In this document: piece by piece, positions 6,345 through 13,950 of the stretch
Layout of the letters: each line of letters opens with the position of its first letter
Position numbering within the stretch: position 1 is the stretch's first letter
Source: Patescibacteria group bacterium
Lineage (GTDB): Bacteria > Patescibacteriota > Patescibacteriia > JAHIZJ01
DNA length: 64,000 nucleotides
Reading direction: 5' to 3'
Assembly: GCA_041650335.1 (NCBI GenBank)
Contig: JBAZLK010000003.1
Coordinates: 57,765-121,764 of the forward strand
Notes under the pieces: generated by a model
What the model saw: only the letters and a program-made list of their open reading frames with translations
What the model was told of the DNA's origin: nothing
The model's database searches: none
Program-made: the position numbers and the translations under genes

Positions 6345-7301
6345 ATGGTCGCAAATTCCCTCACCCAATATATCAAAGACTTTCTCGACTACCTCGAAAT
6401 CGAGCGGAATTGCAGTCTGGCTACGAAACGGAATTACCAGGCTTACCTTGATCGTTTTCTCGATTGGTCGAAATTGTCAAAACCGCAAGACATCACGCTT
6501 GAGGTCGTCCGGCAATTTCGGCTCTATCTCAATCGGCAGGAAAACCAGAAAAAGGAAACGCTCAAAAAAAGTACTCAGAACTACTATCTTATAGCGTTGC
6601 GGGCGTTTCTGAAATACTTGGCCAAACGTGATGTTAAAACTCTGGCGCCGGAAAAAATCGAACTGGCAAAAATGCCCGAACGCCAGGTGACCTTTCTCGA
6701 GGGCGACGATCTCGAACGTTTTCTGGCTGCTCCGCTGAAATCCGACGAGCCGGCCATCATTCAAAAGCGTGACAAGGCGATCTTGGAAATGTTTTTTTCA
6801 ACCGGCCTGCGCGTTTCCGAGCTGGCCGGACTGACTAAAGAAAACGTCAATCTGGCGAAAGACGAATTCACCATTCGCGGCAAGGGCAGCAAGCTCCGGC
6901 TCGTTTTCCTCTCCAACCAGGCCAAGCACTGGCTGAAACAATACCTCGACAGCCGGGCCGATGTTTCGCTCTATCTATTTGTCCGGCACGATCGGGCGAT
7001 CAAGCGTGGTGCCGCGGCTTCGCCGCTCACCTCACGAAGCATCCAACGCCTGGTCCAGCACTACGCAAAATCCGTCGGCATCACCAAACGCATCACCCCC
7101 CACGTGCTCCGGCACTCTTACGCCACCGACCTGCTGACTGGCGGCGCCGATATCCGGTCAGTCCAGTCGTTGCTCGGCCACGCGTCAATCACGACTACGC
7201 AAATTTATACCCATATCACCGATCAGCAGTTAAAGGACGTGTATAAGGCGTTTCACAGTCGGAAACGAACGCCTGGCAAGTTAATTGACACGCCGAAATA
7301 A
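6345..7301 (+). CDS. xerC: tyrosine recombinase, XerC/XerD type
   Basis: N-terminal SAM-like core-binding region (FLDYLEIERNCSLATKRNYQAYLDRFLDW). C-terminal catalytic box HVLRHSYATDLLTGGADIRSVQSLLGHASITTTQIYTHI contains R...HxxR...Y. Confidence 0.85.
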   Translation: MVANSLTQYIKDFLDYLEIERNCSLATKRNYQAYLDRFLDWSKLSKPQDITLEVVRQFRLYLNRQENQKKETLKKSTQNYYLIALRAFLKYLAKRDVKTLAPEKIELAKMPERQVTFLEGDDLERFLAAPLKSDEPAIIQKRDKAILEMFFSTGLRVSELAGLTKENVNLAKDEFTIRGKGSKLRLVFLSNQAKHWLKQYLDSRADVSLYLFVRHDRAIKRGAAASPLTSRSIQRLVQHYAKSVGITKRITPHVLRHSYATDLLTGGADIRSVQSLLGHASITTTQIYTHITDQQLKDVYKAFHSRKRTPGKLIDTPK

Positions 7302-8542: not shown

Positions 8543-9355
8543 TTATCTTCCATTTACGAACCGCAGAATGTCCGGCATCTTCACTCGAGCCGCCTTTTCA
8601 CCGGCGACAATGTGCTTCTTGACCGTCTTCGGATCAAAGAAATCATTGAAACCAACAAATGTCTCGCTGTGCGTTTGCGGTTCAATCACAATATCCGAGT
8701 CAAGGATTGTCTGATGGGCAAAATTATGACGGATAATGGTCAGGGCGCGATAGGTTACGTCAGTGATGCTCTTCTTCGACAGGCGTTTTAATCCGATCTC
8801 CGTTTCCAAACTGACCGAAATAACTTTATCGGCGCCAAGAAATCGGACGACATCATCTGGCACCGGGTTCGTCAATCCGCCGTCGGCCAGAAACCAGTTG
8901 TCGTAGGGAATCGGCGAAAAAACCGGGGTGGCGGAAATACTGGCATGAACCGCCTTAACCACGTCGCCCTCGTTAAGATGAACTTCCTTGCCAGTATGGA
9001 GGTCGGTCGCGACCACGGTCAGTGGAATTTTCAGATCGGAAAACTGAAGATAGCCGAGATGAGCGCGTAAAAACTTCTCGATTTTATTGCCGGCCATGAA
9101 GCCGCCTTTCCAGGTCGGGTCGATGAGCGCCAGCCATTGTTTCAGATTGCTGTGTTCCAACGCGAACGCTTCGATCTTCCGGCTGTCGCCCCAGGCCGCG
9201 TACAAGGCGCCGATCAACGCGCCGATACTCGTGCCCGCCATAAGATCGATCGGAACATGATTGTCTTCGAGTGTTTTCAGAACACCGATGTGCGTCAGCC
9301 CGCGCACCCCGCCGGAGCCAAGCGCTAGACCAATTTTTCTTTTTTTCATTATCAT
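8543..9355 (-). CDS. patatin-like phospholipase
   Basis: GLALGSGGVRG (oxyanion GGxR), GTSIG (GxSxG nucleophile) and DGGLTNPVP (DGG catalytic Asp) are all present. Confidence 0.8.
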   Translation of the reverse strand: MIMKKRKIGLALGSGGVRGLTHIGVLKTLEDNHVPIDLMAGTSIGALIGALYAAWGDSRKIEAFALEHSNLKQWLALIDPTWKGGFMAGNKIEKFLRAHLGYLQFSDLKIPLTVVATDLHTGKEVHLNEGDVVKAVHASISATPVFSPIPYDNWFLADGGLTNPVPDDVVRFLGADKVISVSLETEIGLKRLSKKSITDVTYRALTIIRHNFAHQTILDSDIVIEPQTHSETFVGFNDFFDPKTVKKHIVAGEKAARVKMPDILRFVNGR

Positions 9356-9415
9356 CTCGCTAACAATATTTTACGAATAATTATCTGCGTACCGTCGAAT
9401 CATGAAGCGCCTGTA

Positions 9416-9946
9416 TTATAGACGGCCAACTGATGAAATAATATAGATGCCAATTACGTTTGCCAAAAAAGATATGATGATAAATTTTTTGGCCGAGATC
9501 TTCGTGAAACTGAGTAAACCAGAGGCTAACTCATCCGGCAGCGGCGATGCGAGAATCGCCAGTCCAGATAGTGTTAATAGCCAGCTCGGCAATTTTTTAC
9601 TATCCGACAGGCGCGAGCGTAGAGCTTCAAGCAGGCCCTGGCGGGATTGCGTGCGCAATATGACAAACACGGTAACATCGTATACCGCCGCGCCCAGTCC
9701 GCCGATCAGCGCCACCAGCAGCGAGCTGATAGACGCTGGCATATTCAAGAAAACGACCGTCGCCATGCTCGAGGTAAAGGCCAGAGCATAAAGGACGCCG
9801 GCAAAAAAAGCGCCCATCAGACCCGACTGGTCAATTCGGCCGATGTATTGACGGACGGCCGGAAACTGGATGGCGATTACCGTAATGATAAGACCGGTGA
9901 CGAATATGGAAACCGATACCAGAGTACGGACGTTTTTGATATGCAT
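9416..9946 (-). CDS. polytopic membrane protein of unknown function
   Basis: 176-aa frame with 4-5 predicted TM helices. No catalytic motif recognised. Confidence 0.45.
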   Translation of the reverse strand: MHIKNVRTLVSVSIFVTGLIITVIAIQFPAVRQYIGRIDQSGLMGAFFAGVLYALAFTSSMATVVFLNMPASISSLLVALIGGLGAAVYDVTVFVILRTQSRQGLLEALRSRLSDSKKLPSWLLTLSGLAILASPLPDELASGLLSFTKISAKKFIIISFLANVIGIYIISSVGRL

Positions 9947-10019
9947 TGTGATGATGGTTCTGCTCTTGCCTACAGTATACTGTGTTCCGAACGATAATAA
10001 AAATTTCCGCTAGGTATTT

Positions 10020-10769
10020 TCACTGTGCCGCTATTTTTTTTACCGCCTCAATCAGCATGCTTTCCAAGGGTATGCCTTGATACTGTTCTTTGCTGATTTT
10101 TTTATTTTCCGATATGATCGAAACAGCCAAACCAGCTTTTTTTATTATATCCAAATAGGCATCTTTCAGAACCGCCCCCGCCACGCAGCCGGCGATCAGC
10201 GCCTCGTTTTTTCTTTGCTCAGGCGTCAGTTCGGCCAAGAGCACAATATCGGATACATACATCCGGCCGCCCGGCTTCAGCACTCGTTTCGCCTCCTGAA
10301 AAACTTTCAATTTATCCGGCGCCAGATTGATCACACAGTTTGAAATAATAATATCGGCTGAATTATCCGCGAGCGGAAGGTTTTCAATATCACCCAAGAT
10401 AAAATCAACGTTTCGAAAGTCCATTTTCAAGGCGTTGGTTTTTGCCTTGACGATCATTTCCTCGGTGAAATCAACTCCGATGACTTTGCCGGTTGGACCG
10501 ATACGCTTGGCCGCCAGAAAACAATCGATGCCCGCCCCGCTCCCGAGATCAACGACGACGTCACCCGGCCTCATCTTTCCAAACGCGACCGGGTTGCCAC
10601 ACCCCAAGCCGAGATCAGCCTCACCCACCTGCGCCAGGTCCTGTTCCGAGTAGCCGATATTTTTCGAAACGGTGTTTTGTCCGGCGCACGAACAACCGCA
10701 GGTTTTCATCGGCGTCCGGGCGATTTCGGAATATTTGTCTTTCACAATTTGCTTTGTGTTTTGAACCAT
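10020..10769 (-). CDS. SAM-dependent methyltransferase, arsenite methyltransferase (ArsM)-like
   Basis: N-terminal Cys cluster (CGCSCAG). Class I Rossmann motif VVVDLGSGAGIDCF. ADIIISNCVINLAPDK and the GAVLK block resemble ArsM/UbiE-type methyltransferases. Confidence 0.65.
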   Translation of the reverse strand: MVQNTKQIVKDKYSEIARTPMKTCGCSCAGQNTVSKNIGYSEQDLAQVGEADLGLGCGNPVAFGKMRPGDVVVDLGSGAGIDCFLAAKRIGPTGKVIGVDFTEEMIVKAKTNALKMDFRNVDFILGDIENLPLADNSADIIISNCVINLAPDKLKVFQEAKRVLKPGGRMYVSDIVLLAELTPEQRKNEALIAGCVAGAVLKDAYLDIIKKAGLAVSIISENKKISKEQYQGIPLESMLIEAVKKIAAQ

Positions 10770-10783
10770 AGATATTAATAACG

Positions 10784-10954
10784 TTATAACTCAATGCTTT
10801 TACGCTTATTCTTCAACTTTTTAACTTTGTTTTTTGACAAGTACGTCCAGCCTAAAACGCCAACGGCTGTTTCCACGGCCTCTTTCTCTTCAGTACTAAG
10901 CGTCTGCTTTTTTAACATGCTGATCAATACTGCGGCCGCTTCTTTATGGTCCAT
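10784..10954 (-). CDS. small hypothetical protein (56 aa), below the cutoff of the supplied ORF track
   Basis: Hand-translated: MDHKEAAAVLISMLKKQTLSTEEKEAVETAVGVLGWTYLSKNKVKKLKNKRKSIEL. It lies between the methyltransferase gene and tRNA-His. Confidence 0.25.
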   Translation of the reverse strand: MDHKEAAAVLISMLKKQTLSTEEKEAVETAVGVLGWTYLSKNKVKKLKNKRKSIEL

Positions 10955-11014
10955 AGGCTTATCATAACAAAAACCGCCCTAGTTGGCGATTTCTTAGTTA
11001 CGATGATTATCGTC

Positions 11015-11091
11015 TGGGGTGGCCAGTGGGACTTGCACCCACAACCGCCGGTTCCACAGACCGGTGCTCTACTAATTGAGCTATGGCCACC
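11015..11091 (-). tRNA. tRNA-His (anticodon GTG) with encoded G-1 and CCA
   Basis: The reverse complement gives GGTGGCCATAGCTCAATTAGTAGAGCACCGGTCTGTGGAACCGGCGGTTGTGGGTGCAAGTCCCACTGGCCACCCCA. Anticodon loop is ctGTGga. An extra 5' G pairs with discriminator C, which is the His hallmark. Confidence 0.85.
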
Positions 11092-11238
11092 ATAACAAAA
11101 TTCTCCTGGATTATAGCGTGTTTTTACTTATTTTGCAAGGCCCAAAAAGACGTACAATTAATGTTCTTGACAGCCCCGCTCAATCTCACTAAACTACGGG
11201 CAACACAGGTCCTTGGCCTATTCACAAAGGGGGTAAGC

Positions 11239-11889
11239 GTGGCCGTGGAAAAGACACAAAAACGGTATCTTTCACATGTCGAGTTTCTCCGGCTGGCTGA
11301 CAAGGTAGCGGTCATGCTCCGCCGGCGAAGGTTTGACCACTGCCTGCTTGTTTCCCGCGGAGGACTCTCGCCGGGAGGGTACTTGGCCAAGTGCGTGCCG
11401 TTCTACGACATCTTGGTCGCTTCCATCATGTGGTACAAGAAGGGGCGCAAACTCGCACGGCCGGTCATACTCCAGTTTCCGCCCGAGACCCTGCTCAACG
11501 GCCGTCGCATCCTGATCATTGATGACGTGTGGGATAGCGGCGATACGCTCGATCTTGTCCTGCACATGTGCGTCCGGGCCGGAGCCAAGGTCAGAATTGC
11601 CACCCTTCACTACAAACCCAGGAAGTCCACGCATCCAGGTCGGCCTGATTTCTTCGCCGAGGAAACGGAGGAGTGGATTGTCTATCCCTGGGAGGTGGTT
11701 TGGACAGTCCACATCGAGAAATCAGGCGTGAGACGAGGGACGTTCGTTCATGAATTCGACTGCAAGCCGAGAGCGGGCAAAAAAGTCGTTTTCGACCGGC
11801 CGCCCCACAGGAAGACAGTTGCGCGCACATTCGTTTTCACCAGCGTTGATTTCGATACGCATGTCGCGGTTCTTTCTCCGGTTTCATGA
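11239..11889 (+). CDS. gpt: xanthine-guanine phosphoribosyltransferase-like PRTase with a ~60-aa C-terminal extension
   Basis: VSRGGLSPGGYLA, the PRPP loop RILIIDDVWDSGDTL and the terminal WIVYPWE align with E. coli Gpt (VSRGGLVPG / IVIDDLVDTGGT / WIEQPWD). GTG start 5 nt after AAGGGGG, downstream of a TTGCAA-17-TACAAT promoter. The upstream part of the supplied ORF (from 11083) overlaps tRNA-His and is rejected. Confidence 0.7.
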   Translation: MAVEKTQKRYLSHVEFLRLADKVAVMLRRRRFDHCLLVSRGGLSPGGYLAKCVPFYDILVASIMWYKKGRKLARPVILQFPPETLLNGRRILIIDDVWDSGDTLDLVLHMCVRAGAKVRIATLHYKPRKSTHPGRPDFFAEETEEWIVYPWEVVWTVHIEKSGVRRGTFVHEFDCKPRAGKKVVFDRPPHRKTVARTFVFTSVDFDTHVAVLSPVS

Positions 11890-12005
11890 TCCCAGCGGTC
11901 ATCAAGCTGGGTCAATCTGAGCATGACGGCCCGCCGGACTTCTGTGCGGAGGAGACGAACGGCTGGATCGTCTATCCTTGGGAATTGCGGGAACATCAGT
12001 CGTAA
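11886..12005 (+). pseudogene. relic 3' end of a second gpt-like gene (40-codon frame overlapping the gpt stop as ATGA)
   Basis: Translates to MIPAVIKLGQSEHDGPPDFCAEETNGWIVYPWELREHQS*. PDFCAEETNGWIVYPWE parallels PDFFAEETEEWIVYPWE of the gene above. The nucleotide copies differ mostly at synonymous positions. Confidence 0.4.
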
Positions 12006-12565
12006 AGGAGGAAACGCGGTATGAAATCGCCCTGGAAAGTATTTATCGAGCGCAAAGGCGTCAACCGGTGTACATTCGACCATGTCTTCGAACCGGATCC
12101 GGTCGCCGGCGGCTAGATCAACTTCGACCAGCCCCCGCTTCTCGACCAGCCGGTTGGCCAGTACGAGATCCTGATGGTCGATAGCGTCCTCCGCATGGTG
12201 ATCATCAGGCCGAAGGATGACCTGGCTCATTGACGGTACCACCCATCCACCATGGGTGGCTTTTTTGTGGGAGCAAAGAAAAAGCCCGCCGTTTTTCAAA
12301 CGACGGACGGCTCGGCCTCGCCCAGGATATCAACGGTGATTTCCTTGCGAGAACCCGTGTTCACAATGCCGACGACGCGACAGCTGTATCGCTGCCAACC
12401 GCCGGCCTTAAGCCGAAAGTTGAGAATCTGCGTTTCGTCCCCACGCGGCGCATGACAGAACTCAGCCGTGGTTTGGCTCTCAGCCAATAGTTCGGAACCG
12501 GCTTGAACGTGCACTGCCCAGAGCGCGCTCATGGACACACCTCCTTCTCCGGCTGAAGACCGCAC
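11990..12565 (-). pseudogene. MOSC-domain protein gene disrupted by a frameshift near 12296-12300, with a degenerate 3' end
   Basis: Frame 1 (12565..12296) ends ...ITVDILGEAEPSVV*. Frame 2 (12299 downward) continues THGGWVV...DLVLANRLVEKRGLVEVDLAAGDRIRFEDMVECTPV, resembling the YiiM/MOSC core (HGG...GENLTL...CIGDRLRIG...EVTQP). Beyond about 12000 the frame runs antisense through the gpt relic. Confidence 0.4.
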
Positions 12566-12729
12566 GTCAACTCTCGCTCCCCGTCAACACAGCCCATCTT
12601 CTTATATTGTAGCACGATATTGCCATGAACATAATACGCTCATGAAAGCGACTGGACATTGTCTGAATAGCGGCATTATATTATGATGAATAGGAGAGGG
12701 TTTTCCTTTGTCAGAGCCGATTTACATCC

Positions 12730-13323
12730 ATGCGACGCACCGATACATATCGCCATAGCGGTTTTACTTTGATCGAGCTTTTAATTGTCATTGCCATCAT
12801 CGGCTTGATTACCAGTCTGGCGTTAATTTCCCTGCGTGGCGCGCAACAGAAAGCACGAGATACAAAGCGCCTCTATGATTTAAAAATGGTCAGAGAAGCG
12901 CTGGCGCTTTTTGAATCAGATAAAGGCCATAGCCTCACTCCGTGGCTAGACTTTCCTCAACAAATCGACTATTTCCTAGATGGATTTGGCGTCTTAGACG
13001 TTTCGTCAGAATGCGCTCTGAACCCAAGTGATTATTGTTTCCTGCCAATATTGAGAGAGTATTTTAAAACAGACGTTCCGGTCGATCCAATCAATAACAG
13101 CACATATCAATACGGCTATCTTTTTGACGATAACGGCTGTGTTTGCGCCAGGCCGGGCCAGCCCGGTTGTGATCCAGAACGGGCTAAAATGACGTACCTA
13201 TACGCTTCCCGTCTAGAAAAAACAACTACCGATCACGGCGAAGATCCGCAGTGCGCGGGTGGAGACGGCGCGCGTCTTAACGATGCCTATCAGAACGGCT
13301 TTGTCATCGTGGTCCGGCTCTAG
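12730..13323 (+). CDS. type IV pilin-like protein (prepilin with class III signal peptide)
   Basis: MRRTDTYRHSG|FTLIELLIVIAIIGLITSLAL is a basic leader, G-1, F+1, E+5 and a hydrophobic helix, which is a PilD substrate signature. The C-terminal Cys pair could form a disulfide loop. Confidence 0.8.
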   Translation: MRRTDTYRHSGFTLIELLIVIAIIGLITSLALISLRGAQQKARDTKRLYDLKMVREALALFESDKGHSLTPWLDFPQQIDYFLDGFGVLDVSSECALNPSDYCFLPILREYFKTDVPVDPINNSTYQYGYLFDDNGCVCARPGQPGCDPERAKMTYLYASRLEKTTTDHGEDPQCAGGDGARLNDAYQNGFVIVVRL

Positions 13324-13365
13324 CCCGAAATATTTATCAAAAGAATTATTACTTAGCATGCGACG

Positions 13366-13950
13366 ATGTCCATGGCTCGCGTCGACATTCATCGTCACAC
13401 CGGCTTCACTCTGATTGAACTTTTGGTGGTTATCGCCATCATCGGCTTGATTACCAGTCTGGCCCTGGTCAGTCTGCGCGGCGTCCAACAAAAGGCGCGC
13501 GACACGAGACGCCTGTATGACCTGAAACTCATCAGGGAGGCCGTGATCCGGTTTCAGCTCGATCGGGGCTACAATCCAACCCCCGGCTACGATGATTTCC
13601 AGGAAGATGAGGGCGGTATGGTTGGTGGTGCCGGGATGGACCATTCATCTCAGGATGGGTTTATGCCCATGCTGAAGGAGTATTTTAATACCGACACCCC
13701 AGTCGACCCGATCAACAACTTTTCTGGAGGCTACTTACGTGAATACCTGTACCTCGTCGACACGAGCGGTTGCTATTGCCCGACGCCGCCGATGACACCG
13801 CCGAACTGCGATCCGACGCGAGCGGGGATATCCTATCTCTTCATAATCCATCCTGAGAGAACCATGACCGACCACGGCGACGATCCGCACTGCTCGCTCT
13901 ATGGTGCATATCAGAATGGCTACGTCTTTGTTATCCCTCCACTGCGTTAG
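13366..13950 (+). CDS. type IV pilin-like protein, paralog of the preceding gene
   Basis: MSMARVDIHRHTG|FTLIELLVVIAIIGLITSLAL. Shares the C-terminal block DHGDDPHC...AYQNGYVFV with the upstream paralog (DHGEDPQC...AYQNGFVIV). Confidence 0.8.
   Translation: MSMARVDIHRHTGFTLIELLVVIAIIGLITSLALVSLRGVQQKARDTRRLYDLKLIREAVIRFQLDRGYNPTPGYDDFQEDEGGMVGGAGMDHSSQDGFMPMLKEYFNTDTPVDPINNFSGGYLREYLYLVDTSGCYCPTPPMTPPNCDPTRAGISYLFIIHPERTMTDHGDDPHCSLYGAYQNGYVFVIPPLR

Follow-up and report, generated by a model that had tools for sequence, protein, structure and literature searches.

Layout of the locus

A 64,000-nt stretch of a 215,076-bp contig from a Patescibacteria (Candidate Phyla Radiation, CPR) metagenome-assembled genome (MAG; ENA ERZ27247363), referred to here as the window, contains a gene close to tRNA-His that encodes a fusion protein of 216 amino acids (aa), in which a phosphoribosyltransferase (PRTase) is followed by a beta-barrel. 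From left to right, its neighbourhood consists of a methyltransferase gene (10020-10769, minus strand), a 56-aa open reading frame (ORF), tRNA-His, the PRTase gene, a 78-aa ORF and two pilin-like genes. On the plus strand the order is promoter, A, B1, C1 and stop, followed by B2, a Shine-Dalgarno (SD) sequence, C2 with an in-frame TAG, and a terminator. A and B1 are the two parts of the PRTase domain, and C is an orphan small-protein family defined here (P0059, P0060, P0061, P0062, P0063, P0064 and P0078). The unit formed by the PRTase 3′ block and C is present twice, the second copy having the ancestral layout and a B2 that lacks a gene body.

The locus was compared with those of several relatives. 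L001, which belongs to another species-level lineage (~84-85% nucleotide identity over shared genes; ~85% average nucleotide identity, ANI), carries a fused PRTase, P0001, that is 93% identical to the window protein. The closest unfused relatives are L007 (PRTase P0002, 68% identical) and L008 (PRTase P0003, 60% identical), and both of their PRTases are 158 aa long. The features of the plus strand are the following:

11167..11195, plus strand: TTGACA-17-TAAACT, a promoter-like site ahead of the fusion gene, with conserved counterparts in L001 and L007
11239..11694, plus strand: PRTase domain, parts A and B1 (residues 1-152, GTG start), Gpt-like type I purine PRTase by PF00156, PDB 1vdm and homolog alignment
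11611..11694, plus strand: B1, the in-gene 3′ block YKPRKSTHPGRPDFFAEETEEWIVYPWE, repeated downstream (repeat finder and alignment)
11695..11889, plus strand: C1, fused copy of C (64 aa) with its TGA stop, supported by BLASTP, a hidden Markov model (HMM), the ratio of nonsynonymous to synonymous divergence (dN/dS) and AlphaFold2 (AF2)
11886..12005, plus strand: B2, relic of a native PRTase 3′ end, with an ORF of 39 aa, a homologous part at ~11901-12002 and the native TAA at 12003-12005
12005..12011, plus strand: SD sequence AAGGAGG of the native small gene, read directly, 9 nt before the ATG at 12021 and laid out as in L007, L008 and L001
12021..12233, plus strand (ATG to TGA): C2, native copy of C by homology to P0059, with an in-frame TAG at 12114-12116
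12239..12269, plus strand: intrinsic-terminator-like hairpin (12239-12259) and T-run, closing the unit of fusion gene, relic and C2

No terminator-like site was found on the plus strand between the fusion gene and C2, and by these signals the fusion gene, the relic and C2 form one predicted transcription unit. Public annotation presents the locus differently. Three consecutive NCBI proteins (MFA5107274, -75 and -76; locus tags WC497_03025 and WC497_03040) correspond to the 56-aa ORF, the PRTase and the 78-aa ORF, and no NCBI protein is recorded for either the relic or C2. Other gene callers list fragments of the latter two as 'proteins' of 39 aa and 31 aa (P0077 and P0081).

The fusion gene and the remnants behind it

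Residues 1-152 of the fusion protein are, by homology, a Gpt-like type I purine PRTase with predicted activity. PF00156 (Pribosyltran) matched residues 81-153 with 41.8 bits against a gathering cutoff of 26.3 (E=8.7e-11), and PDB entry 1vdm matched with E=3.4e-17. The loop predicted to bind phosphoribosyl pyrophosphate (PRPP), RILIIDDVWDSGDT at residues 89-103, fits the pattern VLIIDDxxDSGxT, and D95, D96, D99 and G101 are invariant in an alignment of 32 sequences. The best NCBIfam model was the xanthine PRTase equivalog NF006613, which scored 46.7 bits and did not reach its cutoff of 138; we therefore call the protein 'Gpt-like' rather than Gpt. The domain aligns end to end with the Gpt-like PRTases of P. 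horikoshii (1vdm) and Sulfolobus (GpT-1 and GpT-2; 4trb and 4z1o) and with the xanthine-guanine PRTase of E. coli (XGPRT, 1a95), and shares with these enzymes of ~150-180 aa the PRPP motif ILIIDDVWDSGDT and the C-terminal W-I-V-x-P-W-E/D block.

The initial annotation had the gene starting in the shadow of tRNA-His. Homologs, however, align from the GTG at 11239 (NCBI: 11245), which lies ~150 nt from the tRNA and behind the promoter-like site; only the maximal ORF, from the ATG at 11083, overlaps tRNA-His. At the other end, the unusual C-terminal extension of ~60 aa that had been pointed out is real. Unfused homologs (153-166 aa) finish at ...WIVYPWE plus ~6 aa and every PDB match ends at residue ~152-157, whereas the window protein continues for 64 residues beyond the ...YPWE end of the family. 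Such an extension was seen only in the window type and in the L001 type, P0001, and a 64-aa beta-barrel at this position occurs in no solved or database relative.

What the initial annotation did not see is that this extension is, by homology, a copy of the PRTase's usual small downstream neighbour, now fused to it. In L007 and L008 an ORF of 66-69 aa, which belongs to no Pfam family, begins 10-11 nt after the unfused PRTase. The extension matched one member of this C family, P0060, in BLASTP (E=3e-14), and HMM matches agreed. An exhaustive family-profile search of 1.84 billion representative proteins returned six credible members only, among them fused P0001, which the profile matched at residues 178-239; ~7 clusters of the family at 50% identity were found among ~15 billion proteins, and an HMM search of 119 fetched loci found C nowhere outside the known places. 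Comparison of C1 with its L001 counterpart gave a dN/dS of ~0.13, with a synonymous divergence (dS) at background level (0.50), indicating that the fused domain is maintained by purifying selection. C lies directly downstream of a PRTase in L007, L008, L001 and the window, but not in L009 or in L116/L117. The distant members in question occupy 4001-4213 of L116/L117 (GCA_028714495.1) and 5001-5201 of L009; the neighbourhood of the former includes in L117 genes for DUF2807 and DUF4342 proteins, as in the window and L001, and the latter has LexA and UvrD-like genes as neighbours. Neither PADLOC nor PHROGs gave a match for C, the 78-aa ORF or the 56-aa ORF that would point to a defence or phage affiliation.

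The fusion junction was examined in a six-sequence DNA alignment comprising units 1 and 2 of the window, units 1 and 2 of L001 and the single units of L007 and L008. In comparison with the ancestral layout, unit 1 is interrupted by a single clean gap of 42 columns (37-42 nt according to the reference chosen). Missing from unit 1 are the final six codons of the PRTase with their stop, the SD spacer, and the ATG and second codon of C; this loss places C1 in frame with the PRTase. The unfused L007 and L008 and unit 2 all have a stop-to-start spacing of 10-15 nt, with the SD sequence inside or abutting the PRTase 3′ end. Loss of a stop codon and intergenic spacer between co-directional neighbours is a classic route to gene fusion in prokaryotes and yields 'Rosetta-stone' proteins. 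Here too, a short deletion has taken the stop, SD sequence and start between neighbours whose translation was probably coupled and joined them in frame. The present case differs from the usual one in that the fused pair stands beside an unfused remnant of the same pair, so that the event and the pre-fusion state can be read in one locus.

At a second junction, between units 1 and 2, the sequence passes from ~12 nt beyond the stop of C1 to codon ~125 of the PRTase. Both junctions are at the identical place in the window and in L001, and the recurrence of architecture and junction in several samples of the L001 lineage argues that they are not an assembly artefact. An artefact would imply that two strain variants had been joined head to tail through the B block and that the TAG was a consensus error. 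The window does derive from a MAG contig, and a short repeat conserved at WIVYPWE is a classic place for a mis-join. However, the fused architecture was seen on 18 contigs that bear P0001; the 6 places shown represent 6 samples, from ENA assemblies with SPAdes-style and MEGAHIT-style contig names and from Logan, and the architecture was common to these 6 loci, which were compared base by base. Logan contig L114 (run SRR8542065) and the window agree at every base over 9296-13442, TAG included, although the contig may rest on the same reads as the ENA assembly. Moreover, neither an in-frame deletion of 37-42 nt nor purifying selection on C1 can arise by a mis-join, and we consider an artefact very improbable.

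A GTDB genome scan yielded only the L001-type species (L011) as a further fused locus, the next best match being at most 45% identical, and in a metagenome scan no match exceeded 43% identity or had an extension. The GTDB representative in question (CAYJKP010000002.1) is titled 'uncultured Gammaproteobacteria bacterium'; this is probably a mislabel, since both the gene content and the PRTase (93% identical) fit a Patescibacteria MAG. The fusion is a new domain architecture, for which ~15 billion proteins contain one cluster only at 90% identity, and was made by known mechanisms.

Immediately downstream, B2 is the 40-codon frame that the initial annotation had described as repeating the last conserved block of Gpt. 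It consists of 39 aa and a stop, its ATG overlaps the TGA of the fusion gene (ATGA, 11886-11889), and a repeat finder independently reported that 11631-11693 recurs at 11921-11983 (63 nt, 73% identity, spacing 290). Over the shared 18 codons, 10 of 14 differences between B1 and the relic fall at third positions (chi-square p=0.008), bearing out the observation that they are mostly synonymous. The last 30 residues of the relic are 73% identical to the C-terminus of unfused P0002 (BLASTP E=1e-16), the stop position is common to both, and the relic ends as the PRTases of unfused relatives do, with ...WIVYPWELRE(N/H)Q(T/S) and a stop. This match to the true C-terminus of unfused relatives upholds the view that the relic is what survives of the 3′ end of a native, displaced PRTase allele, as opposed to a duplicate of recent date. 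The template and variable repeats of a diversity-generating retroelement were also considered and ruled out, as the differences involve all bases and are concentrated at third codon positions; no reverse transcriptase was found among the neighbouring called genes. In L001, the relic (6735-6838) has 8 differences from L007 in its last 24 codons (11%), none of them at second positions; over the first ~36 nt its divergence is ~36%, with a 1-nt indel.

C2, on the plus strand between the relic and the terminator, had likewise escaped notice. It matched P0059 in BLASTP (E=2e-18) and is intact in L001, where it encodes 67 aa. The TAG codon serves as a normal stop in this genome and ends 13 of the 46 long ORFs of the window; a reassigned stop codon was ruled out on this ground. 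The window C2 is strongly diverged, with 36% aa identity to L001 C2 and a nonsynonymous divergence (dN) of 0.63. Of 12 positions at which six other family members are invariant, it nevertheless retains the shared residue at 10 (binomial p=0.003), implying that it was inactivated only recently. The pattern indicates that C2 diverged as a functional gene and that the nonsense codon is recent, making the present copy either a pseudogene or a very recent nonsense allele. A recent nonsense codon in C2 fits redundancy after the fusion.

It is conceivable that the relic and C2 are still used, the relic being translated either through ATGA coupling, for expression of C2, or as a peptide, and the TAG being read through or tolerated. 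The overlap at 11886-11889 would suit such a role, as would the absence of a detected terminator-like site before C2, the third-position bias of the differences between the window and L001 relics (12 of 19, p=0.02) and the closeness of the L001 relic to the functional L007 end. However, the corresponding start in L001 (GTGA) is out of frame with the relic through the 1-nt indel, and so there is no common ORF; the relic has diverged heavily over its 5′ third; TAG serves as a normal stop codon in this genome; and the differences between the window relic and L007 are flat by codon position (6, 3 and 9), as neutral decay predicts. Continued use therefore seems improbable to us.

Divergence and the history of the locus

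The initial annotation proposed that a native gene had been overwritten at this site. Divergence patterns favour a version of this idea in which A-B1-C1 (~11200-11895) would be an incoming allele from a more distant lineage and B2 and C2 the native leftovers, and we lean slightly towards it. Identity to L007 is 85-92% over the tRNA and promoter and ~52% from ~11200, just past the promoter. Part A differs from L007 with a dS of ~1.4-1.5 and a dN of ~0.25 (66% aa identity), and the same comparison for L001 gave 1.37 and 0.247. For the native parts, L001 and L007 differ by far less (dS/dN of 0.69/0.035 in B2, 0.78/0.198 in C2 and 0.57/0.135 in the 78-aa gene), so that both values for part A are about twice the flank-based expectation. 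Since dS and dN are both approximately doubled, the pattern points to deeper ancestry rather than to acceleration driven by selection. In part A, the window is about as far from L007 (66% aa identity) as L007 is from L008 (67%), whereas in C the L001 C2 is 71% identical to that of L007, compared with 44% between L007 and L008. C1 is 33-41% identical to every other C, the C2 of the same genome included.

The same map could have been produced in situ. A tandem duplication of a ~320-bp segment, from PRTase codon ~125 to past the C stop, might have occurred by unequal or illegitimate recombination between sister chromosomes, followed by the 37-42-nt deletion and fast evolution of the fused gene, with unit 2 remaining conservative. 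A-B1-C1-B2-C2 is exactly the head-to-tail product, for which a single junction suffices, and a fusion would be best tolerated with a back-up copy of C present. Purifying selection on C1 now is what would be expected after an adaptive burst, and the sequence after the C1 stop (TCCCAGCGG) is loosely like that after the L007 C stop (CAGCCGG). However, selection accelerates dN and not dS, and part A shows both at about twice the expected value. Furthermore, nucleotide identity between C1 and C2 is 48-54%, which is essentially saturated, compared with 76% between L001 C2 and L007, and similarity to L007 is already lost in the 5′ untranslated region (UTR), upstream of anything that a duplication of B and C would touch. 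Tandem duplication is thus a possible origin of the locus, though not the one we would expect.

If A-B1-C1 is an incoming allele, the history may have run as follows. In the common ancestor of the window and L001 lineages, the locus would have acquired by recombination the DNA of a more distant relative with its own PRTase-C pair. Homology within the conserved tRNA-His/promoter region would have served as the left anchor; the right-hand join would have been illegitimate, running from ~12 nt past the incoming C stop to native PRTase codon ~125. The native 5′ UTR and codons 1-124 would have been overwritten, with B2 and C2 remaining as leftovers. The short deletion that fused PRTase and C could have happened in the donor or afterwards. 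Later, the tract from tRNA-His to mid-C1 may have been exchanged again between the window and L001 lineages, and in the window lineage the redundant stand-alone C2 would then have gained its nonsense codon.

Homology-facilitated illegitimate recombination and xenologous displacement reportedly occur during natural transformation in Acinetobacter, Streptococcus pneumoniae and Pseudomonas stutzeri. The likeness lies in the one-sided homologous anchor (tRNA-His/promoter, 85-100% conserved), the non-homologous right junction inside the recipient gene and an incoming allele whose ancestry is deeper than that of its flanks. Unlike in those transformation cases, the mechanism here is read from divergence patterns only, and tandem duplication gives the same map.

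Several points weigh against an incoming allele. The comparison involves two fused genomes only and two unfused relatives, the latter on contigs of 1.9-2.5 kb; the divergence estimates rest on 18-134 codons, with several dS values near saturation; and the difference between dS in part A and in the flanks amounts to ~2.8 standard errors by a rough estimate, which is not decisive. No donor lineage with a closer A-B1-C1 was found in the homolog, GTDB, metagenome and profile searches, and microhomology at the junction could not be demonstrated. In addition, the L001 relic has kept more of its sequence than would be expected of a fragment that was already dead when the window and L001 lineages parted; its preservation needs either another recombination tract or an unrecognised constraint.

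A more recent exchange is suggested by the comparison between the window and L001. The dS of PRTase parts A and B1 is 0.13-0.16, compared with 0.48-0.65 in seven neighbouring genes, the intergenic region is 92-97% identical, and the whole tract at 11006-11800 (tRNA-His, intergenic region, PRTase and first half of C1) is ~93-100% identical. This low-dS tract suggests homologous exchange between the lineages. Together with a break in synteny exactly at the tRNA 3′ end, it agrees with the earlier description of a recombination hotspot at tRNA-His, in the sense of a recombination-prone locus. The remaining features of the region, all on the minus strand, are the following:

10784..10954, minus strand: 56-aa orphan ORF (hypothetical protein WC497_03025 at NCBI, singleton cluster), inside the 259-bp stretch 10755-11013, with no homolog in any locus
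11015..11090, minus strand: tRNA-His (GTG); synteny with L001 breaks exactly at its 3′ end
12274..12308, minus strand: intrinsic-terminator-like hairpin (12308-12284) and T-run, ending the convergent 78-aa gene and facing the plus-strand terminator
12296..12532, minus strand: intact 78-aa orphan gene, previously taken for the N-terminal half of a MOSC gene, conserved in L001 and L007

Left of the tRNA, ~1.96 kb of L001 (3875-5837), with a prolyl-tRNA synthetase (ProRS) gene between the methyltransferase gene and tRNA-His, is replaced in the window by the unrelated 259 bp; no ProRS was found anywhere in the 64-kb window. The 259-bp stretch is the left edge of a variable zone and lies outside the fusion. 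Beyond the 78-aa gene, a segment of ~1.25 kb (12659-13910) is missing from L001. It bears the tandem paralogous pilin-like genes (12730-13323 and 13366-13950, plus strand), which have the PF07963 N-terminal methylation motif and 71-76% nucleotide identity in blocks.

A synteny break at the tRNA-His 3′ end with variable content on either side is reminiscent of tRNA-targeted integrative elements. However, no Pfam match to an integrase was found among the called genes around the locus, the 22-nt tRNA-His 3′ end occurs once in the 64-kb window at up to 3 mismatches, leaving no att-like repeat, and the displaced gene is not a tRNA. Such an element was ruled out for want of an integrase and an att-like repeat. 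An Rfam search over 10500-13000 at E<=1 returned the tRNA only, and no riboswitch or other structured RNA.

The minus strand opposite C1, B2 and C2 had been read as a MOSC-domain gene, frameshifted at 12296-12300 and eroded by the event that displaced a gpt allele. Two ORFs of 183 aa and 89 aa (11748..12299 and 12296..12565) do abut at 12296-12299. However, neither has a match to MOSC or any other Pfam family at E<=1, or to NCBIfam, and the supposed frameshift is the stop of the intact 78-aa gene, which has its own terminator. The two frames are not halves of one gene: L001 and L007 have a complete 78-aa ORF with the same stop, beyond which lies C on the plus strand. The 78-aa protein is 86% identical in L001 and 79% identical in L007, with a dN/dS of ~0.2. 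The 183-aa ORF, in contrast, is antisense to the plus-strand C1, B2 and C2 and is broken into pieces in L001, and the plus-strand frames in this region have significant homologs. We give the decay of a MOSC gene practically no credence. The 78-aa orphan forms three clusters only in 5.8 billion sequences. Its N-terminus (MSALWAVHVQAG...EF..PR) is faintly like the C family (hhalign E=0.002, probability 13%, 32 columns), a likeness that may reflect either very distant paralogy, with the gene lying convergent to C2, or chance.

Predicted function and significance

AF2 predicts the C domain, from six sequences, to be a five-stranded small beta-barrel with a high confidence score (predicted local distance difference test, pLDDT) of 95.6. 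Among the closest known systems are the small beta-barrels of the L25-like and glutaminyl-/glutamyl-tRNA synthetase (GlnRS-GluRS) anticodon-binding type and the barrel in the DUF1998 region of the MrfA (YprA) helicase. By the Rosetta-stone logic, a gene fusion points to a partnership. According to the abstract of PMC10666635, unidirectional gene pairs separated by a short distance often encode subunits of heteromeric complexes. This tendency, the tight spacing and SD placement in the unfused relatives and the fusion itself lead us to infer that C is probably a PRTase-associated subunit that is now tethered. On the other side, C occurs without an adjacent PRTase in distant relatives (L009 and L117), which weakens the idea of an obligate partner, and in a model of the full-length fusion, made with PRTase homologs only, the C1 domain has a pLDDT of 58-78, so that no interdomain contact can be claimed. 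The fusion protein would be a 6-oxopurine salvage PRTase with a small beta-barrel partner tethered to it.

More speculatively, C could be a partner that regulates or inhibits the PRTase in these Patescibacteria, evolving fast and restricted to their lineage, and the fused allele could be an advantageous, locked-together form that spreads between related lineages by recombination at the tRNA-His locus. We think this unlikely. Each transfer would then overwrite a native gene and make the free C dispensable, which would explain both the low divergence of the fusion gene between genomes of ~85% ANI and the fresh nonsense codon in C2.

The locus is a small evolutionary snapshot and not a new kind of system, and it was misread both in the first pass, as MOSC decay, and in public annotation. 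Its value lies in having caught a gene fusion in the act, with the product, the displaced gene end and the redundant partner in one operon and the unfused state kept in relatives. This makes it useful for studying how new domain architectures originate in reduced genomes. Patescibacteria are thought to depend on purine salvage, and the fusion gives a testable link between an orphan beta-barrel family and that pathway.

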